From a virus (lineage: Duplodnaviria; Caudoviricetes): 59,010 nucleotides of DNA. The first letter of the stretch is position 1, and each line of letters begins with the position of its first letter. The position numbers and the translations under genes were made by a program. Shown piece by piece: positions 35,976 to 56,382 of this stretch. The notes below the pieces were generated by a model. That model saw only the letters and a program-made list of their open reading frames with translations, had not been told where the DNA came from and did not search any database. Where the stretch lies: the IMG/VR virus record IMGVR_UViG_3300030330_002105, positions 1 to 59,010 of that record; one strand, given 5' to 3'.

Positions 35976-35981
35976 GAGTTA

Positions 35982-37214: not shown

Positions 37215-37216
37215 AG

Positions 37217-37716: not shown

Positions 37717-37727
37717 AGTTTTTAAAT

Positions 37728-37814
37728 TTATTTATACATTTCTTTTCCAACTAGTATACCTATTATAAAGGCCATAACAAATGCTAGTGTTAGTAATAAA
37801 AAATATGCTGTCAT
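37728..37814 (-). CDS. 28-aa single-TM microprotein
   Basis: MTAYFLLLTLAFVMAFIIGILVGKEMYK; ATGA-coupled. Confidence 0.5.
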   Translation of the reverse strand: MTAYFLLLTLAFVMAFIIGILVGKEMYK

Positions 37815-37882
37815 CTTTTTCTTTTCTTTTTAAGTATAATCATTAGCGTTACTAAGATTATGAAATTAACGTATCCTCTCAT
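37811..37882 (-). CDS. 23-aa hydrophobic/basic microprotein
   Basis: MRGYVNFIILVTLMIILKKKRKR; ATGA overlap at both ends. Confidence 0.45.
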   Translation of the reverse strand: MRGYVNFIILVTLMIILKKKRKR

Positions 37883-38067
37883 TTACTTTTACTTTTAAGT
37901 TTCCTTACCTCTCTACCTAGATCAGTATCATTTGGATATTTAGCTATCAACTCATCTATGGTTATAGTTTTTTGGTATTCTTTTTTTAGGTTTAGTTTGG
38001 GTTTATATACCACATCCTTTACCTGTCGTAGTTCGTTTAGTGTTCTATTTTTTTTCATACTATTCAT
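37879..38067 (-). CDS. Hypothetical protein
   Basis: YPNDTDLG.EVR motif; operon-tiling. Confidence 0.55.
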   Translation of the reverse strand: MNSMKKNRTLNELRQVKDVVYKPKLNLKKEYQKTITIDELIAKYPNDTDLGREVRKLKSKSK

Positions 38068-38068
38068 T

Positions 38069-38167
38069 TTAATTATACTTACAAAACAATAGTGTTACTA
38101 AAAAAATTATTATCGCAAATATTGCTAGGCCGTAACACTCTAAAAATTCAATTACTTTCTCTCTCAT
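38069..38167 (-). CDS. 32-aa single-TM microprotein
   Basis: MREKVIEFLECYGLAIFAIIIFLVTLLFCKYN. Confidence 0.45.
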   Translation of the reverse strand: MREKVIEFLECYGLAIFAIIIFLVTLLFCKYN

Positions 38168-38390
38168 TTTTTTTATTTTTTAATTTTATACATTTTTCAA
38201 ACTCATCTAGGTCAGCGAAGTATTCTATCAACGCATCTAGATCTTTTATCTTTGGTGGGTAGTCTACATCATGGGCGAAAAACACCACACCATCATGTAT
38301 TAAATCCTCTACATTTTTTTCTCCTACTATTATGCTGTAAGAGTTACGCATGGCTAAATCAAAGTTATTTAAAATATCTATCTCATTCAT
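38148..38390 (-). CDS. Hypothetical protein
   Basis: Coupled to primase gene. Confidence 0.55.
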   Translation of the reverse strand: MNEIDILNNFDLAMRNSYSIIVGEKNVEDLIHDGVVFFAHDVDYPPKIKDLDALIEYFADLDEFEKCIKLKNKKNERESN

Positions 38391-40777
38391 ACCTCAAGCT
38401 CTAGTTGTTCATCCTTTGGGTAATCAATAATTATATACCTTCCCGTGGAGTCCCTCCCCTGAATAGGTTCTACTCCTGCAATATAATAACTATAAGACTT
38501 TACCCATTTGTCAAACATTTTACGTGACAACTTTCTACTGTAGTCGGGGTATTCAGTAACAAAGTCATTGTAAAGATCCGACTTATAGTATGACCTACCC
38601 ATTATTATATTCTCATCATCTGTTACCCACTCAAAAAAGTCATGGTTAGTTTCAGCTATAAACTTTCTAGTGGTTAAATTTTTAAACTTACTCTTAACAA
38701 ATCCTTTATTCATGTAATACTTAATGTTATTAATCATGTAGTTGTCAAATCTACACCACTCATCAGTATCCCAGTCATCAAATAGTAACCTACCAAAATC
38801 ATCGTAAGGAGTAAATCCTGAGTGATAATGCCTGGTTAACTCTAGCTCCCACTTACGTCTTTCGAATGATGAACCCTTACCTTTGATTGCGTAGTTGGTA
38901 GTAATAACAATCTTAGGCGACATCTCATATGGTATCTTAATAGCGTCCTTGTTTTTTTTCTCCAAGGTAATCCCTTCAGTAATAACACTGAACAGATTCT
39001 CAAAGTTAAAGTTTTTTCTTACATCATCAAAGGTTAACACCTGGGTATCAGCTGACACTAACTGATAAGCAAAAGATTTATCGAAAGAAAACTCCTTACC
39101 ATTGATAACAATGTTCTTCTTCATCTCCGATATTCCCTGTATCAATAACCCCTTACCTGTTCCACCTTCAGGGTTGTCAGAGATAACCTCATCGTTTACA
39201 ATTACCGCAGGGCAGAATGACTTATCCTTGTGGCCATGTAATAGGAATCCAATAGTACTGCGTACAGAGTTTATTCTATCCTCATTCTTGTTACAAATGT
39301 TTGATAGAAAAGTTTTATAGTCACAACTAGTAGAGTCACACAACATAAACTCACGGGATATAATCTGATCCTTCCATACATAACCTCCTAAATTTTCGTA
39401 CTGAATAACCGTTACCTCATGATTACTAACCTTTACCGCACAATTTTTGTAATAAATATAACACTCTCTCTTGGTGTCGTTTAGGAATGGTACGTTCTTT
39501 GAATCTAACATAGTTAAGAAATCTTCCTTAAAAAATCTAGTCTTATCAGCAAAGTAATTGTAAATGGTTAAGTCATCAAGTTGCTCTAAATGTTTTAATA
39601 CATCATCCTTTATATTCTCCTCGGTAGCATTATCTACGATGTTACTCTTGACCTTTATAAATATAAAGTTGTTACCACCATCAGGGTAATACCTGTAATA
39701 ACCCAGGTCATGTAGGAATGCCTTAAACATAAAGTGTATAACGCTTACAACACCCCTGTCGTTCTTGTTCCAAAACTTTAGGGTGTTTGACTCGTTCTCT
39801 TTCTCAGCAATAACAGAGTCGGCTACATCGCCCTCAACACCAGCGTCAACAAGTTGAGAACGTATTTCTTTTTTTGATACACCTGCCCTTATTTTATCCC
39901 TTACTGAATTAACCCTGTCCTTATCCTCAAAGAACTTACTGTTAAAGTTATGTACCTTATCGTAGGCACTATCTATTACCGCAGTAATCTCACTCTCAGG
40001 GAACCCCTTCATTCTAAATCGTCTAAGAATATATGAGGCTAGGTCCTTGTTTACACCAAAGTCATTGAAGGCAGAGGCTAGTATGTAGGCGTTGTTGTTT
40101 CTTTCCCCTTCATTCATGCCGTAATTTTTCTGCCACCACATGGTTAAGCGTCTAATTATCTCATCCTGGTCATCAACCTTTATGGTTACACGCCCACTAG
40201 TATTACTTATATGTTCATGGTTATCCTCAACGATCTTCTTCCACTCACTACTCTTTGGGTTAACATATATTTTTGGATCGTAGCTTTCATAACATACCCT
40301 TGAAATATTTTTACAGGTAGTATCAAAATACTCACAGTCATAGTATTCCTCTAGTGAAAGAAAGTAATTCCTGTGGTTGTCTTCATCCTGTGGTATCTTC
40401 ACAATTACCTTTAACCCATTACCGCTTGGTGATGTGAACACTGCCATGCTGTACTTATCCTCCTGCAACTCCTTGCGTTTTTTATTTAGCTTAGACTCAG
40501 TATCAAAGTTATCAAAGTCCAAACATATTAAACCACTGTGTCGAACTAATGATGCATCCTTACGCTTGTTAAACTCACCCGAAAAACAAATCGCTGGCAG
40601 GCCTTTCTTTAAATCATTACGCTTAGTTTTATCTTTAGTGTTGCGGATTTTTTCTATCAAATCTACCGACTTACCTTCCTTGATTCGTTTAAATATTAGG
40701 TTTACATCCACAAAGAATGGTGTTGAGGTGTCTTGAATATTTTGAAAAATAGTTATTTTGTGTGTGTTTTTTTGCAT
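38387..40777 (-). CDS. Primase-helicase (VirE-N/BT4734-like primase, PriCT, SF3-like helicase)
   Basis: K..LP...SG.F, CLDFD, SPSGNGLK, GERNN, GGTGKG, LTFDD, ITTN. Confidence 0.85.
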   Translation of the reverse strand: MQKNTHKITIFQNIQDTSTPFFVDVNLIFKRIKEGKSVDLIEKIRNTKDKTKRNDLKKGLPAICFSGEFNKRKDASLVRHSGLICLDFDNFDTESKLNKKRKELQEDKYSMAVFTSPSGNGLKVIVKIPQDEDNHRNYFLSLEEYYDCEYFDTTCKNISRVCYESYDPKIYVNPKSSEWKKIVEDNHEHISNTSGRVTIKVDDQDEIIRRLTMWWQKNYGMNEGERNNNAYILASAFNDFGVNKDLASYILRRFRMKGFPESEITAVIDSAYDKVHNFNSKFFEDKDRVNSVRDKIRAGVSKKEIRSQLVDAGVEGDVADSVIAEKENESNTLKFWNKNDRGVVSVIHFMFKAFLHDLGYYRYYPDGGNNFIFIKVKSNIVDNATEENIKDDVLKHLEQLDDLTIYNYFADKTRFFKEDFLTMLDSKNVPFLNDTKRECYIYYKNCAVKVSNHEVTVIQYENLGGYVWKDQIISREFMLCDSTSCDYKTFLSNICNKNEDRINSVRSTIGFLLHGHKDKSFCPAVIVNDEVISDNPEGGTGKGLLIQGISEMKKNIVINGKEFSFDKSFAYQLVSADTQVLTFDDVRKNFNFENLFSVITEGITLEKKNKDAIKIPYEMSPKIVITTNYAIKGKGSSFERRKWELELTRHYHSGFTPYDDFGRLLFDDWDTDEWCRFDNYMINNIKYYMNKGFVKSKFKNLTTRKFIAETNHDFFEWVTDDENIIMGRSYYKSDLYNDFVTEYPDYSRKLSRKMFDKWVKSYSYYIAGVEPIQGRDSTGRYIIIDYPKDEQLELEV

Positions 40778-40970
40778 TTTATTCCACTTGTATTAGTTAT
40801 ATTCCACTTATATTCCACTTATATTCCACTTACGAGAGTCATAACTTATTGATTATCAGGGCGGTGACAGATATGACACATATTTTCTTACGTATACGGA
40901 AAAAAATAATATATATACTATTAAAATATATATAGTAATAGGGGGCTGTTTTTTTGTATTATGTGACATA
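40778..40970. repeat. Ori-like element copy 1 (11-bp iterons, IHF-like site, hairpin, AT-rich tract)
   Basis: TATATTCCACT x3 tandem plus one upstream copy; diverged direct repeat of 50712-50905. Confidence 0.7.
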
Positions 40971-40993
40971 CCCCCTATACATTGGCAAAAGAC

Positions 40994-41281
40994 CTAGAAG
41001 GGTAGATCAGGTGTAGACTCTTTCTTAGCCTCCTTTGGCTCATCCTTCTGAGCTAACTCAACCGTACCATCTGTCCACACTACCTTACCATTACCTACGT
41101 AATTTTTCTTTTCCTTGCTTTCTCTTTCGTCCTTAGACTGTGTTTCATACACGCCTACGTTCTGACCAAACTTATTCGTTTCATCATTAATTGAAACTGT
41201 GATGTCTAAATATTTTCCATCCTTTAGTTTCTGTTTTGTAATCTTTGTCACATCAAGTGACGCACTAACTAATGTTGCCAT
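40994..41281 (-). CDS. Single-stranded DNA-binding protein candidate
   Basis: Small beta protein ending PDLPF, next to recombinase and exonuclease. Confidence 0.65.
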   Translation of the reverse strand: MATLVSASLDVTKITKQKLKDGKYLDITVSINDETNKFGQNVGVYETQSKDERESKEKKNYVGNGKVVWTDGTVELAQKDEPKEAKKESTPDLPF

Positions 41282-41292
41282 AGTTTTAAATT

Positions 41293-42051
41293 TTAAAGTG
41301 TTTTGTTAATAAAAAATTGATCTATATCTTCCGTGGGACTTTCCCCGAAAAATGTGTTATATACCTCTAGGGCACGCATAACCTTTTCTCTACCTGAATC
41401 CAGGAACTGCTCTGAGCAGTCGTACATTCCCATACGACAGGAGCCTTTCTCTATAGCGATAAACACTACAGGTCTTTCAAATAATTGTTCATATATCCAC
41501 GCCTGACTGTCGTAGTTGTATTTCCTTGCGGATCGATGGAAGTCATCTATCCTGCTAGTAGTTTTTAAATCCACCACTAGGTCACTACGTACTATGTCTG
41601 CCTTTCCCTTCCACAGCTGACCACCAATCTTACCTACGGCAGGCTCCTCAAATATATTACCTTGCTCATAGATAATCTCACTAAGTATGACGTTACTCTT
41701 TAGTTCTGATGTCATTTGGTTCAACTCCTCTACCTCCTTCGCTAGTAGTACAATATCTTCACCTGTTTCTGCAAGAATATCCTTGTATATCTTAGCGGTA
41801 CGGGATGATGAGGAACATATAATAAAGTCATCTAGTTTTTCAGGCTCAAGCATAGCGGTATGAAAGTAACTACCCTTTAACATTTCTGTTGATGGCTTGG
41901 TGTACTTCTTAAACATACGTGGGTTGTTTAGTAGTGTAGATATATCTGAGTTAGATAAAAACTTCTTACCAAACTTACCGTAGTAGTTCTTGTCACTACG
42001 CAGTTTATCTATCAGGTTCTTACTTAGCTTATTTACTTCCTCTAACTCCAT
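41293..42051 (-). CDS. RecE/exonuclease VIII-like PD-(D/E)XK nuclease
   Basis: LS.S.I, GS.FH..MLEP, KGKAD, DLKTT, Y..QA..Y. Confidence 0.8.
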   Translation of the reverse strand: MELEEVNKLSKNLIDKLRSDKNYYGKFGKKFLSNSDISTLLNNPRMFKKYTKPSTEMLKGSYFHTAMLEPEKLDDFIICSSSSRTAKIYKDILAETGEDIVLLAKEVEELNQMTSELKSNVILSEIIYEQGNIFEEPAVGKIGGQLWKGKADIVRSDLVVDLKTTSRIDDFHRSARKYNYDSQAWIYEQLFERPVVFIAIEKGSCRMGMYDCSEQFLDSGREKVMRALEVYNTFFGESPTEDIDQFFINKTL

Positions 42052-42673
42052 CGCTTATTGCTTTTTTAAGTTCTGTCTTTATCTCTGGTGTAATGTCGTA
42101 CTTAACGCTAAGGTTTTTAACAATCTTAGTAAGCCCTAACTTCTTGTTCTCTACCACGTAGTGTAGTACCTTCTGCCAATTCATATCGCCTATGTCAAGG
42201 GTATATATCTTAGGTTTAAGCGACTCTTCCTTCTCAGCTGAGGGTAGGTCCTCACCTGCGTAAATATAATGCCCTAATCCAAACATTGCTAGGTTCTTAA
42301 CTAAACACCTCATGATAGCTGTGTTGATATCAAACATAGTAGCAGACTCACAGGTCTTAACACCATACCTAGTCTTGTACTCGTATGGTCTGTCTTTCAT
42401 TGCCTTGTTAGAGTTATCCATTACAGGTAGGTGCATAGGGATTGTTTCCTCATTAATTGTAACACATGTGGATACCATGTAACCCAGGTTTGGATCGTAT
42501 AGGTATGGTTTTCCATCATACTCGGTTACCACATAACTAGCCTGTGGATAGTACTGCTTTACTATTCCCCAAGCCCAAGCCCAGGATAAGTACGTTAGGT
42601 TGTTCTTCTTTTCTACCTTATCATTTACATTGATAGCAGATAGTGTTTCAAATGTTGTTTTTTCTTTTTTCAT
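42029..42673 (-). CDS. sak: Sak (Rad52-like) single-strand annealing protein
   Basis: LTYLSWAWAW, LPVMD..N, IN.AIMRCLVK..AMFGLG.YIYAGEDLP. Confidence 0.85.
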   Translation of the reverse strand: MKKEKTTFETLSAINVNDKVEKKNNLTYLSWAWAWGIVKQYYPQASYVVTEYDGKPYLYDPNLGYMVSTCVTINEETIPMHLPVMDNSNKAMKDRPYEYKTRYGVKTCESATMFDINTAIMRCLVKNLAMFGLGHYIYAGEDLPSAEKEESLKPKIYTLDIGDMNWQKVLHYVVENKKLGLTKIVKNLSVKYDITPEIKTELKKAISDGVRGSK

Positions 42674-42674
42674 T

Positions 42675-43157
42675 TTATTTTATTTTACTATAGTGATTCC
42701 TTATTTTTTTTATGACATTTTTTCTACGGGTTCTAGACTTCTCTAGGAGTTCATCCTTGCCTGTGTCTAGGTAGTGTCGTATAGCATCGTTTAGATCGTC
42801 TAATCTAATCTCTAGGTAGTCAATACTTAGCATGTGTGTACCCTTTAAAAAACCATGACGCACTAGTGTTAACTCCTCACGTGGTCCAATCTTTCGGTAA
42901 AGATCTGCGTTGCCTCTAGTATTATAAACTACCACATCCCCATCGTTCATTCGCTCAATCTTGTATCCGTTCATAATGTAAAACTGTGAGTAAGTGGTTG
43001 TACACTTGCCGGTAATTTGTTGGGATAGTAGATGTTCCCACACGTCATTTAAGTCTTTCATAGTGCGTTCTAGTTTATAGATTTGTTGGGGTTGTGACAG
43101 CTGATTATATACAATATACTCCTGTTCCTGTATGAAAATATTCTTTGTTCGTCCCAT
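42675..43157 (-). CDS. Hypothetical protein
   Basis: Operon ORF. Confidence 0.55.
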   Translation of the reverse strand: MGRTKNIFIQEQEYIVYNQLSQPQQIYKLERTMKDLNDVWEHLLSQQITGKCTTTYSQFYIMNGYKIERMNDGDVVVYNTRGNADLYRKIGPREELTLVRHGFLKGTHMLSIDYLEIRLDDLNDAIRHYLDTGKDELLEKSRTRRKNVIKKIRNHYSKIK

Positions 43158-43184
43158 GTTTTGTGTGTTTAAGGGTGTGCTAAT

Positions 43185-43574
43185 TTACTGAATATATACG
43201 TCTTCTCCAACTACAATTTTAAATTTATTTACATCGTATCCGTAGTCCTGTAGGTATCTAGTTAACCTATCGTAGTACTCCTTGTTGGTGCGTCCACCCT
43301 TACATATTGGTCCACATATTTTTGATCCATCGTAACGCAATTCAGAGTCAATCATAACACCCTCTACGCCTAGTTCTAGTAACACCTTATACTTCAGCTG
43401 ACGCATGAACTTCTGTATCTTAGGGCTTAGTATGTCCTTGGATATTATTTTCTCTACCTCATTGATTACCTCCATCATACCAAAGCCGATGTTACGCATG
43501 GACTCATTAGGTTTGGATGTGTATGAGGTGGCTTTGTCTTTTAACTCATTTAGTTTTTCGGATATTTCTTTCAT
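43185..43574 (-). CDS. Hypothetical protein
   Basis: Operon ORF. Confidence 0.55.
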   Translation of the reverse strand: MKEISEKLNELKDKATSYTSKPNESMRNIGFGMMEVINEVEKIISKDILSPKIQKFMRQLKYKVLLELGVEGVMIDSELRYDGSKICGPICKGGRTNKEYYDRLTRYLQDYGYDVNKFKIVVGEDVYIQ

Positions 43575-43594
43575 TTGTTTTATTGTTTTTTTAT

Positions 43595-43819
43595 TTATAA
43601 ATCCCAGGAAACGTTTGTTTTATTGTTGGTATCTGTTTCGTTTAATATTTTTTTTATTCCGTTAATACTTTCGGACTCACACTTCTTTATGTATAGCTCT
43701 ACTGCCTTAGTTAACATCCAAGATAGTGTGGTGCCGTCCTCTCTCTTTTTGTTCTTTAAGAATTCCTCTTGATAATTCGTCAGGTTAATCTTGTATGTCT
43801 TCCAATTATTTCTATTCAT
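43595..43819 (-). CDS. Ribbon-helix-helix-like regulator candidate
   Basis: Alternating strand KTYKINLT then helix-G-x-T-x-S-helix pattern. Confidence 0.5.
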   Translation of the reverse strand: MNRNNWKTYKINLTNYQEEFLKNKKREDGTTLSWMLTKAVELYIKKCESESINGIKKILNETDTNNKTNVSWDL

Positions 43820-43831
43820 CTTCTTTTGGTT

Positions 43832-44059
43832 TTAATATTTAGATGTTTCAAGTATTTCTACCGTCTTTTTGTTTACATCTTTTAATAAATCATTAAAGTA
43901 CTGCTTTGCTAGGTCTTCATTGAAACTAAGACTCCCAGGAACCAAATCATACCTATTAAGGGTTTTATCTAATGACTCAGTATAATAAACCGTTTCTTTT
44001 CCTGTTGTAGTTTCGTTTACCTCTTTTACTAATCTTAATGTTGGTTTGCTGTCTTTCAT
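43832..44059 (-). CDS. Hypothetical protein
   Basis: Operon ORF. Confidence 0.5.
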   Translation of the reverse strand: MKDSKPTLRLVKEVNETTTGKETVYYTESLDKTLNRYDLVPGSLSFNEDLAKQYFNDLLKDVNKKTVEILETSKY

Positions 44060-44418
44060 AATTTTATTTCTTTATTATTTTCTAAATCGTAAATTGCTAG
44101 TTGCTGTCTTTGGTGGGCAATATCTAACGCTTTGTCTAATGTTATCGATCCCTTGTCGAATATCTCTGAGGTATCTAGGTAGTACTTACCGTCATTCTCC
44201 CACCCACCTAACACTATATTATCTTCCATTAAATCATCGATGTTTTCTACAATGAACTGTCGTATCTCTGTGTCGGTAGGTAGGGTGTTATATACCCTCT
44301 CTGTTGCCTTTGTTTTAGCGATACTGTAGCAGGGTAGCCCTGACACATCCCCCATTCTCATGCTCCAGGAAAATCCTCCCTTTGCTAGTTCAGGTCGTAA
44401 GTCATATAAGTTCTTCAT
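44056..44418 (-). CDS. Conserved-type phage hypothetical protein
   Basis: LGGW...YLD.S...A...Q.AIYDL motif. Confidence 0.55.
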   Translation of the reverse strand: MKNLYDLRPELAKGGFSWSMRMGDVSGLPCYSIAKTKATERVYNTLPTDTEIRQFIVENIDDLMEDNIVLGGWENDGKYYLDTSEIFDKGSITLDKALDIAHQRQQLAIYDLENNKEIKL

Positions 44419-44429
44419 AGTCTTTAATT

Positions 44430-44546
44430 TTAGTATCCGAATATTTCTATTAGGATAAATGATACACCTGTGATCGTTGCCATTACACTACTAGCTAGTA
44501 CTAAGTATGTAAGGTCTTGTTTGATTTGATTGATTGCTTGTTTCAT
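44430..44546 (-). CDS. 38-aa single-TM microprotein
   Basis: MKQAINQIKQDLTYLVLASSVMATITGVSFILIEIFGY behind ECF-like promoter and conserved leader. Confidence 0.6.
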   Translation of the reverse strand: MKQAINQIKQDLTYLVLASSVMATITGVSFILIEIFGY

Positions 44547-44578
44547 AGTTGTTTGTTTTTATTGGTTATGTATTGTTA

Positions 44579-44604
44579 TACGTAAGGTAGTGTAAAAGGT
44601 TACA
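44579..44604 (-). promoter_or_regulatory. ECF-like promoter TGTAAC-N16-CGTA
   Basis: Motif read on - strand. Confidence 0.75.
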
Positions 44605-44609
44605 TTTTT

Positions 44610-44969
44610 TTACATTTTTTCGACCAATGGCTGTTTTTTGTCGACCAATTGTATTAACGTAACGACATTGTTATATACTATATTTTGGTTAAATGACTTG
44701 GGGATGTTCATGCCTGTAATCTGTTGCACCCTATCGACTGCCTCGATCAAATAGTTCCAATCGTTGTGGTACTTCAGTACGGAACGGTGTCCAATAAATT
44801 CTGCGATGAGCATATTTTTTTGGTGAGTATTTAATTCTATATCATAAGACTTACTGTCTTGATTATTGTGAACCACCATTATCTGTTCATCTGTACTGTC
44901 ATCTATGTAGTACTCATAATCTCCTATGGTTATATATACTACCTTGTCGTTTCTTATATCTATTTTCAT
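44610..44969 (-). CDS. Hypothetical early protein (C-terminal half paralogous to 45795..46067)
   Basis: N.LIAEF.G...YH..W..L motif. Confidence 0.55.
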   Translation of the reverse strand: MKIDIRNDKVVYITIGDYEYYIDDSTDEQIMVVHNNQDSKSYDIELNTHQKNMLIAEFIGHRSVLKYHNDWNYLIEAVDRVQQITGMNIPKSFNQNIVYNNVVTLIQLVDKKQPLVEKM

Positions 44970-45070
44970 TTGATTAGGTTTTTAATTGTGTTTACATCTG
45001 TTGTTCCGTACTTCTGCTTGATATATCTTAAGTACTTCTTACACTCGGTTATTTTTTCTAGTTCGTTCAT
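44966..45070 (-). CDS. 34-aa hypothetical protein
   Basis: Coupled to both neighbours. Confidence 0.45.
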   Translation of the reverse strand: MNELEKITECKKYLRYIKQKYGTTDVNTIKNLIK

Positions 45071-45333
45071 TATAAATGCCCTCCATAATTACCCTCGCCA
45101 TATTCAAATCTCCACTCGCTATCTGAACTAGGTTCAGTCCAATTTATGTCATTATCGCACCCGTTACCGAATATATATTCTGCCTTACTTATTTTATCAT
45201 CTATTTCATCTGTGTATAAATGATCGTTGTCAGTTAGATATTCGTGTATGTCATTACACTCCATGTCAGGGACATCTATTTCTACTTCTGCGTACCTGTG
45301 GTACACTTGTCTTGTTTTAATTTTTACTTTCAT
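45070..45333 (-). CDS. Acidic hypothetical early protein
   Basis: Conserved leader and promoter upstream. Confidence 0.6.
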   Translation of the reverse strand: MKVKIKTRQVYHRYAEVEIDVPDMECNDIHEYLTDNDHLYTDEIDDKISKAEYIFGNGCDNDINWTEPSSDSEWRFEYGEGNYGGHL

Positions 45334-45356
45334 AATTTCTAAGTTTTATTTGGCTG

Positions 45357-45383
45357 TACGTTTATTCTTGCTTCAGGGTTACA
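45357..45383 (-). promoter_or_regulatory. ECF-like promoter TGTAAC-N17-CGTA
   Basis: Motif read on - strand. Confidence 0.7.
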
Positions 45384-45592
45384 TCCTGTATATACATTCT
45401 TAATGTTTTTTTATCTATGTTACCCTTCTCATCTATTAGTCCTGAGTCTATAAAATTCCTTGCCTGTCTTCCATATACACCTTGCATTGTCCACACCCTA
45501 CCTGATTTTATTAACTCACTAAATAGTTCGGCTTGTTCAGAGAGTACTAACTCCCCACATTCATATCTTATAATTAAATCTACTATATCCAT
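45362..45592 (-). CDS. Hypothetical early protein
   Basis: LI.SG..W.MQG.YGR.A...I..G.I motif. Confidence 0.6.
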   Translation of the reverse strand: MDIVDLIIRYECGELVLSEQAELFSELIKSGRVWTMQGVYGRQARNFIDSGLIDEKGNIDKKTLRMYIQDVTLKQE

Positions 45593-45612
45593 AATTTCTA
45601 TTTGTTATTTAT

Positions 45613-45789
45613 TTATTTTTGTATTGATTCAAGAATTTTAATTTTTTCTTTTAATTCTTTTAATTCTTTAATTACATCTTTGATTGATTCTACTGCAACA
45701 CCTACCTCATCATCATCCTCATACATATTCCATTTCCAATTTTCGATTACTACAATAGAATCTTCTAAAATTTTAATTTGTTCTTGCAT
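45613..45789 (-). CDS. 58-aa hypothetical protein
   Basis: ATG follows the conserved TAGAAATT leader. Confidence 0.55.
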   Translation of the reverse strand: MQEQIKILEDSIVVIENWKWNMYEDDDEVGVAVESIKDVIKELKELKEKIKILESIQK

Positions 45790-45794
45790 AATTT

Positions 45795-46067
45795 CTATTT
45801 GTTTAATTGTTTTATAAATTCTACTACTGCTTTATAGGTTATGTTTATGTCACATTCCTCAAGGGCATAGTATACCACATCAAAATACTCTAATTGGTTC
45901 TTTTTTCTACATTTCTGTAATACTGGCATAAGCCAATCCCATGAAGTGTGGTATAGTAAGTTCTCTAATGAATATCCTTTGTGTTCTGATACATGATATA
46001 CTCCTGCTTCATTTGGGATAATACCCATAAATTCTGCTATTAATTTGTTATTTTCTTGTGTGTTCAT
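45795..46067 (-). CDS. Hypothetical early protein
   Basis: NKLIAEFMG...YHTSWDWLMPV motif. Confidence 0.6.
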   Translation of the reverse strand: MNTQENNKLIAEFMGIIPNEAGVYHVSEHKGYSLENLLYHTSWDWLMPVLQKCRKKNQLEYFDVVYYALEECDINITYKAVVEFIKQLNK

Positions 46068-46097
46068 CTTATTTAGTTTTATTGGTTTATATTCTTG

Positions 46098-46124
46098 TAC
46101 GTAAATTAGTTATCTAGGGTTACA
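46098..46124 (-). promoter_or_regulatory. ECF-like promoter TGTAAC-N17-CGTA
   Basis: Motif read on - strand. Confidence 0.7.
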
Positions 46125-46125
46125 A

Positions 46126-46335
46126 TTAATGTGAATTTTCTTTTTCAATTTCCATTCGCATATCTCCAATGTAGTCCTTCATCTGCTCATCATCCATCTG
46201 ATAATTTCGATCCTCAAGCTCTGACTGTATGCCCTCTAAAAATTTGATTGCCTTAGTTAGTTCTGTGTCAAATTCTCTGTGTGTATCTTCATTGAACCCA
46301 TACAAATTATCTATTATTTTTTCTAACTCATTCAT
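46126..46335 (-). CDS. Acidic hypothetical early protein
   Basis: Conserved leader. Confidence 0.55.
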   Translation of the reverse strand: MNELEKIIDNLYGFNEDTHREFDTELTKAIKFLEGIQSELEDRNYQMDDEQMKDYIGDMRMEIEKENSH

Positions 46336-46340
46336 AGTTT

Positions 46341-46580
46341 CTATTTGTTTAATTGGTTGAAATGATTTATCAGTAGGTCCTCACTTTCATTCAAGTAGTC
46401 TATGTAATAGTCTGCGTAATCAGAATCGATAATGCCCTGAACCTTGTCTTCCTTCATCCACTCTCTCATATCTTGAATGTTGTTAAGTGCTTCACTAAAA
46501 TCTTGATATATTATAGTTTCTTTTTGTGTATTACAGGATACTCCCATCAGTAATGCTATTGGTATTAATAAATTTTTCAT
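46341..46580 (-). CDS. Small lipoprotein
   Basis: MKNLLIPIALLMGVSC lipoprotein signal. Confidence 0.65.
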   Translation of the reverse strand: MKNLLIPIALLMGVSCNTQKETIIYQDFSEALNNIQDMREWMKEDKVQGIIDSDYADYYIDYLNESEDLLINHFNQLNK

Positions 46581-46585
46581 AGTTT

Positions 46586-46780
46586 CTATTTGTTTTGGTT
46601 AAATAATTCTCTTGCTTTAATCATTGCGTAGCTTCTCTGTTGGTAATAAGTGCCACATCTTTGACCTCTAGGTAATTTAATTACCATATCTTTTGAGCCG
46701 TAAATTGTGTCCCCTCTTAATATTCCATTTGCTATTCTCTCAATTTCTTGTAGTTCTTTTTGTGCTTGTTGTTGTGTCAT
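46586..46780 (-). CDS. Hypothetical early protein
   Basis: Conserved leader. Confidence 0.55.
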   Translation of the reverse strand: MTQQQAQKELQEIERIANGILRGDTIYGSKDMVIKLPRGQRCGTYYQQRSYAMIKARELFNQNK

Positions 46781-46794
46781 AGTTTCTAGTTTTT

Positions 46795-47013
46795 TTATTG
46801 GTTTATATTTGTTATGTCAATACACTTTTTTACTCCTAGTCCATCTGTATCCATTTGCTCTAGCTCTTGTTCGCAAATCATATCTACAATTTCATTGGCA
46901 AGTTCTGTATCTTTGAACTGTCCGTTGTCATCTAGTAAGTCTGACTTGTTTTCAAGTTCAACCTCTACCGTTGTTGTGTACGTTCTCTCTACTGTTATTT
47001 GAAATGTTTTCAT
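46795..47013 (-). CDS. Acidic hypothetical early protein
   Basis: Conserved leader. Confidence 0.55.
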   Translation of the reverse strand: MKTFQITVERTYTTTVEVELENKSDLLDDNGQFKDTELANEIVDMICEQELEQMDTDGLGVKKCIDITNINQ

Positions 47014-47040
47014 CGTTTCTAGTTTTTTATTGGTTTATAT

Positions 47041-47217
47041 TTAGTCGGGTATTATATCTTCGTCATAAGTGGTAAATACTTCATTCGATATATGTCTACC
47101 TAATTCCTTATAAAATTCTTCTACTTCTGAAGATGTGTAATCTTCTTTTAATGAATTAGCAAAGTCTATAATTCCTTCTACAAATTCTTTGTTTATTGCG
47201 TTATCCCATGCATTCAT
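47041..47217 (-). CDS. 58-aa acidic hypothetical protein
   Basis: MNAWDNAINKEF...; promoter and leader upstream. Confidence 0.6.
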   Translation of the reverse strand: MNAWDNAINKEFVEGIIDFANSLKEDYTSSEVEEFYKELGRHISNEVFTTYDEDIIPD

Positions 47218-47250
47218 AATTTCTAGTTTTTTATTGGTTTATATTTGTTT

Positions 47251-47276
47251 TACGTTGATTATTTTAAAAGGTTACA
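47251..47276 (-). promoter_or_regulatory. ECF-like promoter TGTAAC-N16-CGTA
   Basis: Motif read on - strand. Confidence 0.75.
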
Positions 47277-47512
47277 ATTTCAGTTCCATCTTCGAGGTAG
47301 TGGTAGTCATCATCTAATTCTTCCCATTCTGTCCAATAGTAATACTCATCATTAAATGCTTCATCTAGTGTTTTGTATCCTACGCTTTCAATATGTTTAA
47401 GCATTTGAGATTTATTTTTTATGTACATTTCACCGTCATTAATGCAGTAACCCTCATTCATTCCTTCGCCTGTCACATCGCATTTCCTTGCATATTTTTT
47501 TGATTGATTCAT
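47264..47512 (-). CDS. Hypothetical early protein
   Basis: ARKCD.TG.GMNEGY...YYWTEWE motif. Confidence 0.6.
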   Translation of the reverse strand: MNQSKKYARKCDVTGEGMNEGYCINDGEMYIKNKSQMLKHIESVGYKTLDEAFNDEYYYWTEWEELDDDYHYLEDGTEIVTF

Positions 47513-47542
47513 TGTCTTTAATTTAGTTGGTTTATATTGTTC

Positions 47543-47568
47543 TACGTTGGTTATTTTAAAAGGTTACA
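47543..47568 (-). promoter_or_regulatory. ECF-like promoter TGTAAC-N16-CGTA
   Basis: Near-identical to the 47251 copy including spacer. Confidence 0.75.
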
Positions 47569-47817
47569 ATTATAATAATAATATTCAAATTCATTTCTAA
47601 TATCTCTGCCTAATCTAGTATTAAAACCGTAGCTGTGAGTATGTAAATTATTAATCGGGGTTTGCTCTATCATAAAATGAAATACTTCTACTGGTTTGCA
47701 TTTATATATTTTAGATATTTTTTGACAAGCTATTTTTAATTTAGTAGGTTCGTGTCTTAATTGTCCGTAATTATTTATTAAATAATTTTTAATTCCTTTG
47801 GATGTTAAATATTTCAT
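47551..47817 (-). CDS. Hypothetical early protein
   Basis: Conserved leader. Confidence 0.55.
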   Translation of the reverse strand: MKYLTSKGIKNYLINNYGQLRHEPTKLKIACQKISKIYKCKPVEVFHFMIEQTPINNLHTHSYGFNTRLGRDIRNEFEYYYYNCNLLK

Positions 47818-47836
47818 AGTTTCTAGTTTTTAGTTA

Positions 47837-48049
47837 TTAATCGAAAATAAAATCTGTTAAGCCTTTCATCCCTACAAAGGGCAATTCTTTTTGAACCTCT
47901 GCCGGACATTTTATTTTGTCGTATCCCTGTACTTCTTCGATCAAAATTAATTCTTCATTGCTTTTAATTGTTCCTTCTTTTTTGTTGGTGTAGATAAAGA
48001 TTGCTTTACCATTTGCCAATTCAATTTGTTGTTTGTTGTATCCTTCCAT
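47837..48049 (-). CDS. Hypothetical early protein
   Basis: Conserved leader. Confidence 0.55.
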   Translation of the reverse strand: MEGYNKQQIELANGKAIFIYTNKKEGTIKSNEELILIEEVQGYDKIKCPAEVQKELPFVGMKGLTDFIFD

Positions 48050-48071
48050 AGTTTCTATTTATTTAATTGGT

Positions 48072-48467
48072 TTATAACTTATTGTTTTTCCTAATTATTT
48101 CTTCAGCCACCGTTACTCTACCGACCAAAGAAGAAACCTCATCATAATAGTCTGCGTGCTTGATGTAGTGTTTTTTCTCATCTATCTTTTTGTACTCAGG
48201 CTCAGGCTCGTTTAGTTTAAGGTGTTCTAGAATTCTTTTCGACCTCTCTAATTCTATTTCAATCTCTTCGATAGGTGTTTCAGAATACACCCATTTCCAA
48301 TATCCCGTAGCTCCCATCATAATATACAACGCTCCCTCTAACCCAGATAGATATCCTAAATCGTACAAAGAGTCTTCTGATTGGTGAAATCCACCATGCT
48401 CTTTAACTATCCTATCCTTTTGCCGTTGAATTCTTTTCATTAATTGAAGTTTCTTAAGTTCATCCAT
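48072..48467 (-). CDS. Hypothetical early protein
   Basis: Conserved leader. Confidence 0.55.
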   Translation of the reverse strand: MDELKKLQLMKRIQRQKDRIVKEHGGFHQSEDSLYDLGYLSGLEGALYIMMGATGYWKWVYSETPIEEIEIELERSKRILEHLKLNEPEPEYKKIDEKKHYIKHADYYDEVSSLVGRVTVAEEIIRKNNKL

Positions 48468-48469
48468 AA

Positions 48470-48562
48470 CTATTTATTTAATTGGTTTATAAATTCTTTT
48501 AGTTTTTTAGTTGGTTCGTTACTATTGAGTAAGTCTTCGATTTGTTTCTGTATTGTGTTCAT
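48470..48562 (-). CDS. 30-aa peptide ending NQLNK
   Basis: ATG 9 nt after the CGTA of the upstream promoter. Confidence 0.4.
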   Translation of the reverse strand: MNTIQKQIEDLLNSNEPTKKLKEFINQLNK

Positions 48563-48571
48563 ATATTGTTT

Positions 48572-48597
48572 TACGTTGGTTAATTTATTTTGTTACA
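48572..48597 (-). promoter_or_regulatory. ECF-like promoter TGTAAC-N16-CGTA
   Basis: Motif read on - strand. Confidence 0.75.
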
Positions 48598-48602
48598 TTT
48601 AT

Positions 48603-49181
48603 TTAAAATTTATTTCTTATTGATGACCAAATAATCGCCTGATATTCGAAGCCCTTTAACCCTAGCTTATCGGCTTTCTTGATGGTTAATTTTTGTATCT
48701 GATTGTATGCTAATTTCCCACAGCTAGCCATAGTTTTATTAAAACACGCTCTCAGGTGCCAAACGTCAGTAGTTACAAAGTTGTTATCTAAATGAGCAAT
48801 ATTGTTTACAAAAGCAAATGTTTTTTGACTGTCAGCTGAGATTACTTTGTTTCCTTTGGCAATCTCGAAGGCTTTAAACTTGTTCGTGTGAAACGTGCAG
48901 ACCTTAATATCATTAGCCTCCTTGCCCTCTTGTACTGCCTGAAATACTTTGTAAGCGTCTTTTATGTTTTGTTCCCATTTGTTACGTGGACTTAGTGCTG
49001 ATATTACACTTGCACCAATCAACTCTGTTGTATTAAACTTTTGTGCAATATCTTTGCAAATCTCATTTGCTTTTTTGTACCACTCCAACCCCTCTGAAAT
49101 TTCTTCTTTGGTCGCTAGATTAAACCACTTATCCAAGTTCTTAGATATTTTATTTAGTTGGTATTTAGTTAATTGCTTCAT
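48603..49181 (-). CDS. Conserved phage protein, possible HhH-glycosylase-like fold
   Basis: WY..A, ISALSP...W..N, K..AF..NI, VT.D.WH, QA.IW motifs. Confidence 0.5.
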   Translation of the reverse strand: MKQLTKYQLNKISKNLDKWFNLATKEEISEGLEWYKKANEICKDIAQKFNTTELIGASVISALSPRNKWEQNIKDAYKVFQAVQEGKEANDIKVCTFHTNKFKAFEIAKGNKVISADSQKTFAFVNNIAHLDNNFVTTDVWHLRACFNKTMASCGKLAYNQIQKLTIKKADKLGLKGFEYQAIIWSSIRNKF

Positions 49182-49213
49182 AATTATTGTTTATTGGTTT
49201 GTTTGATTAGTTA

Positions 49214-49239
49214 AACGGAGTAGCCAAATAAAGGTTTCA
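49214..49239 (-). promoter_or_regulatory. ECF-like promoter variant TGAAAC-N16-CGTT
   Basis: Motif read on - strand ahead of conserved leader. Confidence 0.6.
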
Positions 49240-49246
49240 ATTATTT

Positions 49247-49513
49247 CTATTTTTTAGTCGTTAATAATTCGTTTAATTGATTTTCTAACAATTCTGTTTT
49301 CATATCGTTAATCGTTTTTTTCTTTAAAATTGTTAGTAATTTATTTTCCTTATGTAAACCTCTAACCGTTTTATCTAATTCCATATTCAAAATTTGACCC
49401 CTTTGATTATAACCATTTTCAAAAGCTATACTTGATTTGTTAAATGATAAATTGTGTAAAAACCATTCGTGTAATTCTAAATTTTTCTGTTCTGCTTTGC
49501 TTAAATCTGTCAT
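49247..49513 (-). CDS. First gene of the - strand arm, hypothetical
   Basis: Conserved leader. Confidence 0.55.
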   Translation of the reverse strand: MTDLSKAEQKNLELHEWFLHNLSFNKSSIAFENGYNQRGQILNMELDKTVRGLHKENKLLTILKKKTINDMKTELLENQLNELLTTKK

Positions 49514-49637: not shown

Positions 49638-49925
49638 ATCAATTGACACATAATGACACAATTTAAACTCAATGCAACTCGCTGAAAATCAGTAACTTAT
49701 AACGATATCTCTAGTGTTGAGTACGTGAAATGTCTTCTACCTTAAAATAAGAGAGGGGGGGTTATTCCTTTGTTAGGTGTATCTAATAAAGTTTTTAGTC
49801 TTATCTAAATATAAATTTAGGCGTGTCTAAAAATAACTATCTAGAATATTAGTCAGTAATGACTAGACTATTTGTATTGTTAACTAGATGTAGAGTAATA
49901 TGTTATGTATGCATACTATTATTTG

Positions 49926-50598: not shown

Positions 50599-50637
50599 TG
50601 TCACAGAAATGTCACAGAAATGTCATGAAATGTGGAG
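50599..50637. repeat. Tandem TGTCACAGAAA repeats (two perfect, further degenerate)
   Basis: tgtcacagaaa tgtcacagaaa tgtcatgaaa tgtggag. Confidence 0.7.
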
Positions 50638-50711
50638 TAAGTAAAAAATTACGTCTAACTGTTAAGTGAAAATAAACGTTTATAACCGTTTAAAAACGGA
50701 TAAATAGGTAA

Positions 50712-50905
50712 AATATTCCAGATACAAGGGGTATATTCCAGATAGATTCCAGATATATTCCACATAGAAGAGAGCTAACTTGCTGATAATCAGAGGGATG
50801 TCACTTATGTCACTTATTTTCCTTACGTATAGGGAAAAAAAAATATTTATAGTCTATAAAAAGTATAGGGTAATAGGAGGTGTTTTTTTTGGATTATGTG
50901 GAATG
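50712..50905. repeat. Ori-like element copy 2
   Basis: Iterons at 50712, 50732, 50743, 50754; same architecture as 40778-40970. Confidence 0.7.
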
Positions 50906-50990
50906 GCTACTTTTTAAATTATTTTAGGAGGGTGCACTTTTTGTACAAAATAAATATATATATTTGCTGGTATAACTAAAATCTAATTCA

Positions 50991-52574
50991 ATGATAGTAA
51001 AACAAGTAAGCTTCGATAGCGAAGCAAGGCAAGATCTAATAGATGGCATTAACGTACTTGCCGATGCCGTAAAGAGTACACTAGGGGCTAGAGGTCAAAC
51101 GGTCCTTATAGAATCAGAGAATCATACTAAGGGTATAACGGTTACCAAGGATGGGGTAACGGTGGCTAAGAGTATTAACCTACTACACCCTACACAGAAC
51201 CTAGCGGTGTCTATGATGAAGGAGGCCGCTGATAAGACGGCTATATCCGCAGGGGATGGAACAACTACTGCTATTGTTATTACACAGGCGATTGTGCTAG
51301 AGGCACAGAAACGTATTAAGCCACATATGAATATAACCGATATTATCCGTGCTATACAGGCTAGTAGTGAGTACGTGGTGAAGGAGCTAGGGAAAAAAGC
51401 TAAGAAGGTAAATGGGAAGAGATTGTTAGACGTGGCGACTATATCATCAAATAATGACAAGGAGCTTGGGGATATTATTGCTAAGGCATACCAAGAGGTT
51501 GGTGATGACGGGGTGGTAACGGTAGAGAATGCTCGTGGGGCATATACCTACTCAGAGATAACTAACGGTATGAAGATTGACCGTGGGTATAGTAGTAAGT
51601 ATTTTATTACCGACCATAAGAAGGCCGAGTGTGTACTGCATAACCCGTATGTGCTGGTTACCGACCAGGAAATAAACCACCTTACAAATATTCCAGAGCA
51701 TGTGCTAAAGGCAGTAATTAGCTCTAACAGGCCGTTATTGATTATTGGGACCTTAACCCCACAGGCATTAAATTCGTTCAATGTGAACGTAGCTAAGGGT
51801 ATAATAAAGGGTTGTAGCATCATCCCTCCGCAGTTTGGGTGGAAGTCACACGAGCTAATGGAAGATATTGCTACCGCTACAGGGGCTACCTACTTCTCAG
51901 AGGATACAGGGGATAATCTGGAGGTAATACAGGTATCTGACCTTGGAAAGGCTAAGAAGGCTATTATATCACAGGAAGGGACCGTCCTGGTGAAGAACGA
52001 TGAGCAGAACATACACGTAGAGAATAGAGTGGCCGACCTATGGGAGGAGTATGAAACACACACCATTGAGGACCAGAAAGAGTTCCTGAAGGAAAGAATA
52101 GCTATTATGACAGGCGGTGTAGGGGTAATACACGTAGGGGCTAAGTCAGATATTGAGCAGAAAGAGAAAAGAGATAGGGTTGATGATGCCGTGTGTGCTA
52201 CACGAGCCGCTATTGAGCAAGGAATCCTACCAGGCGGTGGTATCGCACTACTTGAAATTGCTTCGGACCTCGCTGGGCGAGGTAGTAGTGAGAGTGAGAG
52301 GGTTGCTAATGCTATACTAGCGGATGCTATAAAGGCCCCGTTCCGACAGATTCTAACCAATGCAGGACTCGATGCTAAAGATATTGAGCCTAATTTAGAC
52401 CCAGGTGTAGGGTATGATGTAAAGGCCGATAGATATGGGAACATGATTAAGCTGGGGATCATAGACCCAATGAAGGTTACTAAGAACGCCCTAGAGAATG
52501 CCGTATCGGTAGCGACAACCATAATGTCAACTAATGCAATAATAACAAATGTGAGAGACTATGAAAGATCATAA
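50991..52574 (+). CDS. groEL: Chaperonin GroEL
   Basis: TLGARG, TKDGVTVAK, AGDGTTTA, GILPGGG, GIIDP.KV...AL.NA.SVA. Confidence 0.97.
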   Translation: MIVKQVSFDSEARQDLIDGINVLADAVKSTLGARGQTVLIESENHTKGITVTKDGVTVAKSINLLHPTQNLAVSMMKEAADKTAISAGDGTTTAIVITQAIVLEAQKRIKPHMNITDIIRAIQASSEYVVKELGKKAKKVNGKRLLDVATISSNNDKELGDIIAKAYQEVGDDGVVTVENARGAYTYSEITNGMKIDRGYSSKYFITDHKKAECVLHNPYVLVTDQEINHLTNIPEHVLKAVISSNRPLLIIGTLTPQALNSFNVNVAKGIIKGCSIIPPQFGWKSHELMEDIATATGATYFSEDTGDNLEVIQVSDLGKAKKAIISQEGTVLVKNDEQNIHVENRVADLWEEYETHTIEDQKEFLKERIAIMTGGVGVIHVGAKSDIEQKEKRDRVDDAVCATRAAIEQGILPGGGIALLEIASDLAGRGSSESERVANAILADAIKAPFRQILTNAGLDAKDIEPNLDPGVGYDVKADRYGNMIKLGIIDPMKVTKNALENAVSVATTIMSTNAIITNVRDYERS

Positions 52575-52734: not shown

Positions 52735-53066
52735 AAACACTAAAAGATTTAGGTAAAAAACATTATGAAAAAATACACTACTCATTTGATATACACTATT
52801 ACCCAAACAGGGATGAGGATATGTATGTTGGTATTTTGAAAAATATCATGGAAATAAGAGGGTATGAAATAAGATTAAAAGATCTAACAATTGAGGGCTT
52901 GGTTAAAAAGGCAGATGATTTTTTAACTATGTGTAAATCAATAAGAGTAAATCGTGAAGGAATGAAATTTCAAGTAATTCAATGGAATCTTGATAATCCT
53001 GAAGATATGAAATTTTCTTTAGAAACTTATAATGATCTAAAAACAAAAAAGGCAGTTAACCAATGA
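52731..53066 (+). CDS. Hypothetical protein
   Basis: Between groEL and groES. Confidence 0.55.
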   Translation: MKTLKDLGKKHYEKIHYSFDIHYYPNRDEDMYVGILKNIMEIRGYEIRLKDLTIEGLVKKADDFLTMCKSIRVNREGMKFQVIQWNLDNPEDMKFSLETYNDLKTKKAVNQ

Positions 53067-53320
53067 AAGCGGTAGGTAAGTATATAATCATTGAAAACCT
53101 CAGCGAGGAGGTAACCACGGGGAGTGGATTAATTCTAACGGGTGATGATGTAAGTAAGCTAAGATATAGAAAAAGTAAGGTAGTAAGTGCAGGCACGGAT
53201 GTGGATTGTGTGAAGGATGGTGACATCATATACCACGACTCACGAGCTGGACACAAGGTGAAGCTGGAGGATAATGTATATGGGGTAATACTAGAGAGAG
53301 AGGTAGTGATAAAAATGTAA
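53063..53320 (+). CDS. groES: Co-chaperonin GroES
   Basis: T.SGLIL mobile loop, VVSAG, VKDGD.I. Confidence 0.9.
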   Translation: MKAVGKYIIIENLSEEVTTGSGLILTGDDVSKLRYRKSKVVSAGTDVDCVKDGDIIYHDSRAGHKVKLEDNVYGVILEREVVIKM

Positions 53321-55916: not shown

Positions 55917-55942
55917 TGTAACATTTTTTTATTTTATGCGTA
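55917..55942 (+). promoter_or_regulatory. ECF-like promoter TGTAAC-N16-CGTA
   Basis: Directly upstream of 55975. Confidence 0.75.
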
Positions 55943-55974: not shown

Positions 55975-56382
55975 ATGAAAAAACTAACATTATTATTTAA
56001 TTTGCTTTTATCAATAGGTATTTTTTCTCAAAATTCTAATTTACAACTTGAATTAATTAAACCATTAAAAAAGGCTTGTAAAAAAGGAAATCATTTTAAA
56101 CTTGAAAAGTTTTTTGTAAAAAAACATGGATGTAAAAAGTATGTCCTTGACGGTTATGAAATTTTTAAGAGTGATTACTTAGAGGATTACAATTATGTTT
56201 TTAGTAATATATCTTCGGATAAAGATTATTATAAAACAGTTTATTATGCAGTAACTAAGTTACTTAATCCTAAACAAGAAATTACTTATGAAACACATCC
56301 AAAATTTACCGCTATACATCAAATAGATAAGGAAGATAATTACCACGTGGTTTTTATTCTGGCCGATTTACCTCGGAATTAA
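55975..56382 (+). CDS. Secreted hypothetical protein (moron-like)
   Basis: Signal peptide MKKLTLLFNLLLSIGIFSQ; own promoter. Confidence 0.6.
   Translation: MKKLTLLFNLLLSIGIFSQNSNLQLELIKPLKKACKKGNHFKLEKFFVKKHGCKKYVLDGYEIFKSDYLEDYNYVFSNISSDKDYYKTVYYAVTKLLNPKQEITYETHPKFTAIHQIDKEDNYHVVFILADLPRN

Follow-up and report, generated by a model that had tools for sequence, protein, structure and literature searches.

Which sigma factor starts the first genes of a phage that has no recognisable sigma factor of its own? As a rule, phages either begin with the primary sigma factor of the host or bring a polymerase or sigma with them. The question is raised by IMG/VR virus record IMGVR_UViG_3300030330_002105, analyzed here as a whole (59,010 bases, estimated to be 94% complete; hereafter the window), in which a promoter-like motif, TG(T/A)AAC-N16/17-CGT(A/T), recurs ahead of a leftward array of small genes. 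SigW/SigX-type promoters of Bacillus subtilis, which are read by extracytoplasmic function (ECF) sigma factors, have AAC at -35, CGT at -10 and a spacer of 16-17 nt. The preliminary description of this DNA had proposed that the array depends on a host ECF sigma factor or on an unrecognised phage factor, and our comparative analysis supports the former: the nine sites are probably promoters that a host ECF-type sigma factor reads. Judged from sequence, TGTAAC-N16/17-CGTA is a genuine host promoter class, found in front of rpoD throughout the Flavobacteriaceae loci examined. The window is a podovirus with crAss-type tail proteins, kin to the Elemovirus and Cellulophaga phages, and we place its host at family level, in the Flavobacteriaceae.

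Nine ECF-type sites and the genes behind them

A regular-expression scan and a six-frame pattern search return exactly the nine matches first described, seven on the minus strand and two on the plus strand, and 9/9 face the next gene:

49214-49239, minus strand: site TGAAACC-N-CCGTT; the DUF7178 gene 48603-49181 begins with an ATG 32 nt further on.
48572-48597, minus strand: site TGTAACA...ACGTA; the ATG of a 30-codon open reading frame (ORF) follows after 9 nt, and the next listed gene, 48072-48467, is 104 nt away.
47543-47568, minus strand: site 30 nt before the ATG of 47264-47512, overlapping the last 18 nt of the upstream ORF.
47251-47276, minus strand: site 33 nt before the ATG of 47041-47217.
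46098-46124, minus strand: site with spacer 17, 30 nt before the ATG of 45795-46067; counterpart in sister phage G073.
45357-45383, minus strand: site with spacer 17, 23 nt before the ATG of 45070-45333.
44579-44604, minus strand: last array site; the 38-codon ORF 44430-44546 has its ATG 32 nt further on; counterpart in the sister (L081).
14420-14445, plus strand: site directly 3' of the stop codon of head-block gene 13677-14417; kept in contigs L005 and L012.
55917-55942, plus strand: site 32 nt before the ATG of 55975-56382, which encodes a protein with a signal-peptide-like N terminus; overlaps a TAATTTTG box; counterpart in the sister.

Neither position nor orientation is random. The pattern read backwards has no match in the window, and 300 dinucleotide-preserving shuffles contain a mean of 0.59 matches (maximum 3) versus the nine observed. 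Intergenic DNA makes up 5.75% of the window by the 93-ORF gene list, and six of the nine sites are wholly intergenic, the other three overlapping the final 13-22 nt of the upstream ORF; among 27 looser matches lacking the leading G or TG, 26 are intragenic. The distance from CGTW to the ATG is 23-33 nt in 7/9 sites, 48572 and 14420 being the exceptions. When the nine sites are aligned, T, G, AAC and CGT are invariant. The -35 box reads TG(T/A)AAC in every site, followed on its 3' side by a T-rich stretch in 6/9, and the -10 box reads CGTA in eight sites and CGTT in one, at a spacing of 16 nt in seven sites and 17 nt in two; these are the boxes and the spacing of ECF promoters.

The sites stand in the following layout:

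1 to 33.7 kb, plus strand: lysis, terminase, portal, head and tail genes.
33659-44418, minus strand: replication/recombination module (Pfam and PHROGs), downstream of the array on the same strand.
44430-49513, minus strand: small-gene array, about 18 ORFs of 38-192 aa, hardly any with a known function; presumably early.
49.9 kb onward, plus strand: small ORFs, GroEL, GroES and lectin-like tail proteins.

The early timing of the array is presumed from this layout. The replication/recombination module encodes a Sak annealing protein, a PDDEXK exonuclease, a primase-helicase, a DnaA-C-like protein, an SNF2 helicase, a VRR-NUC nuclease and a repair exonuclease, and has no ECF-type site of its own. 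Between 43.5 and 50 kb we found no terminator-like site on the minus strand, and a scan of the same interval for the sigma-70-type consensus gave 19 sites versus 31.7 in shuffles, fewer than chance. Because no terminator-like site lies downstream of it on this strand, site 44579 probably also feeds the replication module. Contigs from one metatranscriptome run (X20) cover parts of the window at 85-99% likeness; they carry no information on starts, strand or level. One of them spans site 46098, with three changes, all outside the boxes.

The plus-strand site at 14420 has a different setting:

14496-14520, plus strand: terminator-like G+C hairpin (14496-14513) followed by a run of seven T, from the folding/terminator scan.

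Transcription from the site would yield an RNA of about 70-75 nt ending at the hairpin, and the stretch folds better than shuffles (z -2.5). Like the site, the hairpin is kept in the related contigs L005 and L012. The locus may encode a small RNA, or the site may simply be a stray one.

The same motif in host genomes

To place the motif outside the window we scanned prokaryotes, one genome per species, for the exact form TGTAACCTTTT-N10-ACGTA, which occurs in at least 120 stretches, many of them from Bacteroidota. Among the 120 stretches listed, 16 have a gene for a 287-aa primary sigma factor downstream, all Flavobacteriales by record title, with the motif 24-50 nt before the ATG and always followed by TAA; one further primary-sigma copy, cut, comes from a Bacteroidales metagenome-assembled genome (L234). 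An ECF sigma gene lies just downstream in another 11 of the 120 listed, from assorted phyla other than Bacteroidota; an ECF gene downstream of a motif of its own class is the usual self-regulating layout. The listed stretches also include nine Bacteroidales with queA downstream (L128, L133, L152, L158, L179, L182, L205, L223, L238), where the motif lies 40-136 nt before queA and, in 8/9, within a long open reading frame belonging to the preceding gene.

A query with rpoD found the gene in 61/61 Flavobacteriaceae genomes. TGTAAC-N16/17-CGTAtaa lies within 160 nt upstream of it in 30/30 loci examined, 29 of which were chosen independently of the motif, and the rpoD site is the only universally conserved near-consensus site in the hosts. 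Elsewhere in host genomes, near-consensus sites stand ahead of Band-7/SPFH genes and of a gene for a small membrane protein. In two Flavobacteriaceae genomes, where we read 30 of the 36 loci matching Sigma70_r2, each genome has GTAAC-N16/17-CGT ahead of rpoD and ahead of the genes of two conserved ECF sigma families. The phage sites and the rpoD promoter share TGTAAC, the T-rich stretch, the 16-17 nt spacer and ACGTA; they differ in that, in the host, an invariant TAA and a longer leader come next, and a genome has a single copy as against nine in the 59-kb phage. There is precedent for an ECF factor placed above a housekeeping sigma: in Streptomyces the ECF sigma ShbA drives the principal sigma gene hrdB. 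That system and the SigW/SigX promoters have the same AAC/CGT boxes and spacing; both belong to other phyla, and neither involves a phage.

The preliminary description had called for a comparison with ECF promoters of Flavobacteriia, and the motif fits one of them. In Flavobacterium psychrophilum, the text of Guerin et al. 2021 (PMC9723704) describes a promoter class, SM6, with CGT in its -10 box, which the authors attribute to ECF sigma factors and which is induced at low nutrients; the genes listed for it include those for two Band-7 proteins, for components of type IX secretion and for an ECF sigma with its anti-sigma. The main text of that paper does not name rpoD. The phage sites resemble SM6 in the -10 CGT box and the ECF assignment, and in other Flavobacteriaceae the window's motif stands before Band-7 genes and, in a CGTC form, before ECF sigma genes, a likeness that covers the -10 box and the gene list as the text describes them. 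SM6 differs in being a host regulon with mapped starts, whereas the window's sites are phage sites known from sequence, nearer consensus than most host sites. Phage leaders of 23-33 nt from CGTA to ATG fit this setting, since the median 5' untranslated region given for F. psychrophilum is 24 nt (PMC9723704). For Bacteroides thetaiotaomicron, the published map describes a second promoter motif, PM2 (PMC7366714).

The preliminary description had further held that the structural operons use the TAnnTTTG element of the primary sigma factor. This holds in the window: 11 intergenic boxes lie within 150 nt upstream of genes, 11/11 of them before plus-strand genes. None precedes a minus-strand gene within the same limits, and the element is absent from the seven minus-strand ECF-type sites. 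The boxes are:

1538-1545, plus strand: TACCTTTG box before 1562-1963.
4400-4407, plus strand: TAACTTTG box, 17 nt before 4424-4693.
11017-11024, plus strand: TAACTTTG as a -7 box of the primary-sigma type, 22 nt ahead of 11046-12185, with which the head (capsid) block opens.
14523-14530, plus strand: TACCTTTG box, 29 nt before 14559-14843.
15220-15227, plus strand: TATCTTTG box, 17 nt before the adaptor-like gene 15244-15978.
50959-50966, plus strand: TATATTTG box, 25 nt before the GroEL gene 50991-52574.
Ending at 23508, 50289, 53336, 55110 and 55918, plus strand: the other TAnnTTTG boxes of the intergenic scan.

These boxes bear on a rival explanation in which host polymerase reads the ECF-type sites with a non-ECF sigma factor, either the primary sigma or a second RpoD-like paralogue, through an unusual binding mode that would also serve self-regulation of rpoD. 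The singular conservation of the rpoD site would fit such a reader, and two or three RpoD-like genes are present in 31/61 Flavobacteriaceae genomes, the extra copies at 50-84% identity. Moreover, a T precedes many rpoD sites and gives TTTG, the -33 word of the primary sigma (PMC7366714). However, TTG stands at the -33 place in only 3/7 array sites, none of which has TAnnTTTG; AAC and CGT boxes at 16-17 nt are an ECF signature, and it is to an ECF factor that the CGT-box class of F. psychrophilum was assigned; and in other phyla the exact motif is found in front of genes for ECF sigma factors. We regard a non-ECF host sigma as quite improbable.

Related phages and the search for a phage-encoded reader

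By its large terminase subunit, TerL, the window is closest to an uncultured freshwater podovirus, MW202828 (72% identity), followed by Flavobacterium Elemovirus phages (45%), Cellulophaga phages phi19:3, phi46:3, Calle_1 and phi38:1 (37-40%) and crAss-like phages (23%). Megablast of 20 kb against the phage collection gave zero matches, and the window's DNA is present in marine metagenome runs from 7 studies. A sister phage, G073 (59.9 kb, 99% complete), has early proteins 60-93% identical to those of the window and six ECF-type sites versus 0-1 for the reversed pattern, among them counterparts of window sites 46098, 44579 and 55917. At 46098 the changes between the two phages are confined to the spacer. 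Where matching sites were compared, five times in all, 3 of 60 box positions had changed, each to a letter that the motif permits, and 8 of 71 spacer positions; the flanks changed at 91 of 300 and 59 of 150 positions, these being ungapped counts inflated by insertions and deletions.

More distant relatives carry other elements at these positions. Perfect palindromes of 14-16 bp occupy the same places in MW202828 (44.5-50 kb, L004), L265 and L288, about 20-40 nt before each early gene and in 4-8 copies per relative, and L274 and L277 have other short repeats there. The early arrays are mosaics. In the window the array sites have a common leader, AACAATATAAACCAA, and intergenic cassettes that include it are repeated as blocks. 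Operator-like palindromes, repeated cassettes and mosaic arrays would all suit sites that are not promoters and serve as regulator binding sites or as boundaries for cassette exchange between phages. The sites themselves argue otherwise: the two boxes are strict, their spacing is fixed, the spacer sequence is variable and dyad symmetry is absent; orientation always matches the gene; and the same motif stands at the expected distance before host rpoD and ECF genes. A role other than promotion is thus very improbable.

The variety of early elements also bears on whether a phage-encoded factor reads or enables the sites, be it an undetectably divergent sigma, a protein that retargets a host sigma or one that releases an ECF factor from its anti-sigma. 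Apart from the palindromes and repeats just described, one relative (the record holding L282) encodes a divergent sigma-70-family protein of 254 aa just upstream of an ERF recombinase gene (L290:1396-2157, plus strand; region 2 E=5e-5, region 4 E=0.018), and its early region has repeated words of its own, TGCTATACAC and TGATAATATA. Jumbo Bacteroidota phages carry the window's motif in number, at least 37 exact copies in a 148.5-kb record and 12, 10 and 8 in others, and 3 of the 5 such records searched, all fragments (14-45% complete), encode ECF-sized sigma factors. About 60 ORFs of the window have no family.

The preliminary description had found no recognisable sigma factor, and wider searches bear this out. 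Pfam detected no sigma or RNA polymerase family in the 93 ORFs, nor at E up to 10 in 17 candidates; PHROGs gave no sigma or polymerase among the window's proteins; six-frame searches of the window with Sigma70_r2 and Sigma70_r4_2 returned nothing; and hidden Markov models (HMMs) of four phage sigmas and of the relative's sigma had no credible match in it. Profile-profile comparison, which had been suggested as a check, agrees: an ECF profile of 13 sequences, aligned by hhalign with the window's ORFs of 50-450 aa, reached a best probability of 1.6%. The 99%-complete sister, with its six ECF-type sites, has no Sigma70_r2 match either.

Three candidates were considered individually and rejected. 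The 60-aa ORF 34771-34953 matched the four-sequence sigma HMM at E=0.0016; it is too short and is not in the hhalign top 15. ORF 42675-43157, which lies in the slot of the relative's sigma, has 7 homologues and a core that appears strand-rich by eye, unlike a sigma factor. DUF7178 (48603-49181, minus strand, 192 aa), the product of the second array gene and the best-placed candidate, has 998 homologues, mostly from marine metagenomes, and is absent from all five jumbo-phage records that hold the motif. A model built from 25 sequences (predicted local distance difference test score 93.8) predicts an all-helical domain of nine helices. Foldseek against the PDB gave no match at E<=0.001 for this model, and its weak top matches are all HhH-GPD 8-oxoguanine DNA glycosylases (E ~0.4, template-modelling score 0.40-0.47), with no sigma factor among the look-alikes.

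Few proteins link the window to the jumbo-phage loci, namely head, terminase and chaperonin proteins and early ORFs of the sister contigs; in addition, jumbo-phage locus L028 has a short match, 41% over 56 aa, to early ORF 45795-46067. Since the motif and a host promoter of universal conservation are identical, a new reader is unnecessary, and together with the negative searches this makes a phage-encoded factor unlikely; it is nevertheless the strongest of the rivals, sustained by the lineage-specific elements of the relatives.

A polymerase carried in the virion or encoded by the phage, as in crAss-like and N4-like phages, would be another way to use the motif. The possibility arose from matches to crAss-type muzzle domains PF25731 and PF25729 in the proteins of 16895-22522 and 22533-23495 (plus strand), downstream of which lies the gene for a 2400-aa virion-block protein of unknown function (within 26460-33662, plus strand; counterparts in relatives have 3,694 and 3,859 aa); the window's TerL is, moreover, a distant relative of crAss-like TerL. 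We dropped this candidate: the 2400-aa protein has neither DFDxD nor DxDxD, no Pfam family and no sequence match to solved chains in the PDB, and its PHROGs matches are only of unknown function. A phage RNA polymerase, which the preliminary description had named as a finding that would change the interpretation, was thus looked for by catalytic motif and by sequence match to solved chains and was not found. A two-box AAC/CGT motif common to host genes points instead to a sigma-dependent holoenzyme, and the early transcripts that the virion polymerase of crAss-like phage phi14:2 makes are reported to have no common upstream motif (bioRxiv 10.1101/2020.03.07.982082). We consider a phage polymerase extremely unlikely.

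Other features of the genome stand beside these. The chaperonin genes on the plus strand encode GroEL (50991-52574) and GroES (53063-53320), and a second protein of 200 aa with a GroES-like C terminus (5496-6098, plus strand) adjoins the terminase gene; MW202828 and Elemovirus have the same pair. Two clusters of four iteron-like repeats with the core TATTCCA(C/G) lie in opposite orientation, one directly 5' of the primase-helicase gene (40780-40831, minus strand) and one in the gap before GroEL (50715-50766, plus strand), and short ATGTCAC repeats occupy 50609-50813; clusters and repeats are likely replication-origin elements. The 345-nt divergent region between the gene blocks holds two copies of TAGA(C/T)AC(G/A)CCTAA (49773-49829, minus strand). 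Rfam and tRNA scans of the window returned nothing.

A probable host ECF factor at the start of infection

Several points weigh against a host ECF sigma factor as the reader. Cells usually keep ECF sigma factors in an inactive state, and for the first genes to depend on one, basal activity or induction by infection would be needed. The window is only 94% complete, and ahead of 49247-49513, the gene with which the array opens, stands only the degenerate site TGAAAC-N16-TAGT, without CGT. In both host genomes read locus by locus, the promoters of the ECF genes themselves end in CGTC, not CGTA. Near-consensus sites (TGTAACC-N15/16-CGTA or TGTAAC-N16/17-CGTAT) are rare in ten host genomes, at 1-5 per genome with no excess over the reversed control, and the host regulon would therefore be small or degenerate. 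As for the phages, 25 loci that share DUF7178 (29-75% identity) have 0-2 matches each, at most one per strand and no array; MW202828 has no ECF-type site; and five cultured relatives have 0-3 matches, the same as the control, and again no array. The relative with a 254-aa sigma of its own counts on the same side, and lineage-specific elements are also expected from a phage-encoded reader.

On balance we still favor the host ECF factor. We infer from the sequence that the sites fire, that their reader is of the ECF kind, that the array is early and that its use depends on the state of the host. The sites would act as ECF promoters, with TGTAAC(C) at -35 and in many cases a run of T after it, a spacer of 16-17 nt and (A)CGTA at -10. 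Their reader would be host RNA polymerase carrying a host sigma of the ECF kind, of the class that reads the rpoD promoter of Flavobacteriaceae. Seven close promoters without terminators between them would give strong, additive transcription of the leftward small genes, and read-through probably continues into the replication and recombination genes, while the rightward genes for chaperonins, tail, head and lysis would use the primary sigma through TAnnTTTG. Because it serves rpoD, this sigma may already be at work in cells that grow or starve; it may also be freed by envelope damage during infection.

Two groups of phages offer the nearest comparisons. Jumbo Bacteroidota phages have the same motif before every one to three accessory genes; they differ in encoding ECF-sized sigmas, which the window phage and its sister do not, and these two are podoviruses of about 60 kb from another lineage. 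Phages of the phiEco32 / 7-11 group are, like the window, podoviruses with a second promoter class beside that of the host primary sigma, but their ECF-like sigma is phage-encoded and serves middle and late promoters (PMC8948821), whereas the window has no phage sigma and places the second class at a small-gene array. In the open-access literature we found no report of phage early promoters read by a host ECF sigma and, by title and abstract, none on this motif in Bacteroidota. The promoter class is already known; what is new is its apparent use by a small sigma-less phage for its presumed opening genes, and the finding that the conserved rpoD promoter of the host family belongs to this class as well.

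The compact, near-consensus phage sites are ready-made probes for the reader of the conserved rpoD promoter, and could serve as strong, regulated promoters for Bacteroidota genetics, where standard tools fail. The differing early elements among sister phages amount to a natural experiment on the exchange of transcription strategies. It is possible, if somewhat doubtful, that this is a virulent, sigma-less phage whose entire opening programme has shifted to a promoter class that Flavobacteriaceae reserve for rpoD, with its take-off tied to host state and its early switch an exchangeable cassette. If so, these abundant marine phages would depend on a small host "sigma of the sigma" circuit with an ECF-type factor at its center, triggered for example by the nutrient poverty of seawater or by the envelope insult of infection, and sister lineages would have swapped the module for palindromic elements or a sigma of their own. 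Opening genes placed on a host alternative sigma would tie the success of infection to host physiology in the marine Flavobacteriaceae, bacteria that turn over algal carbon.

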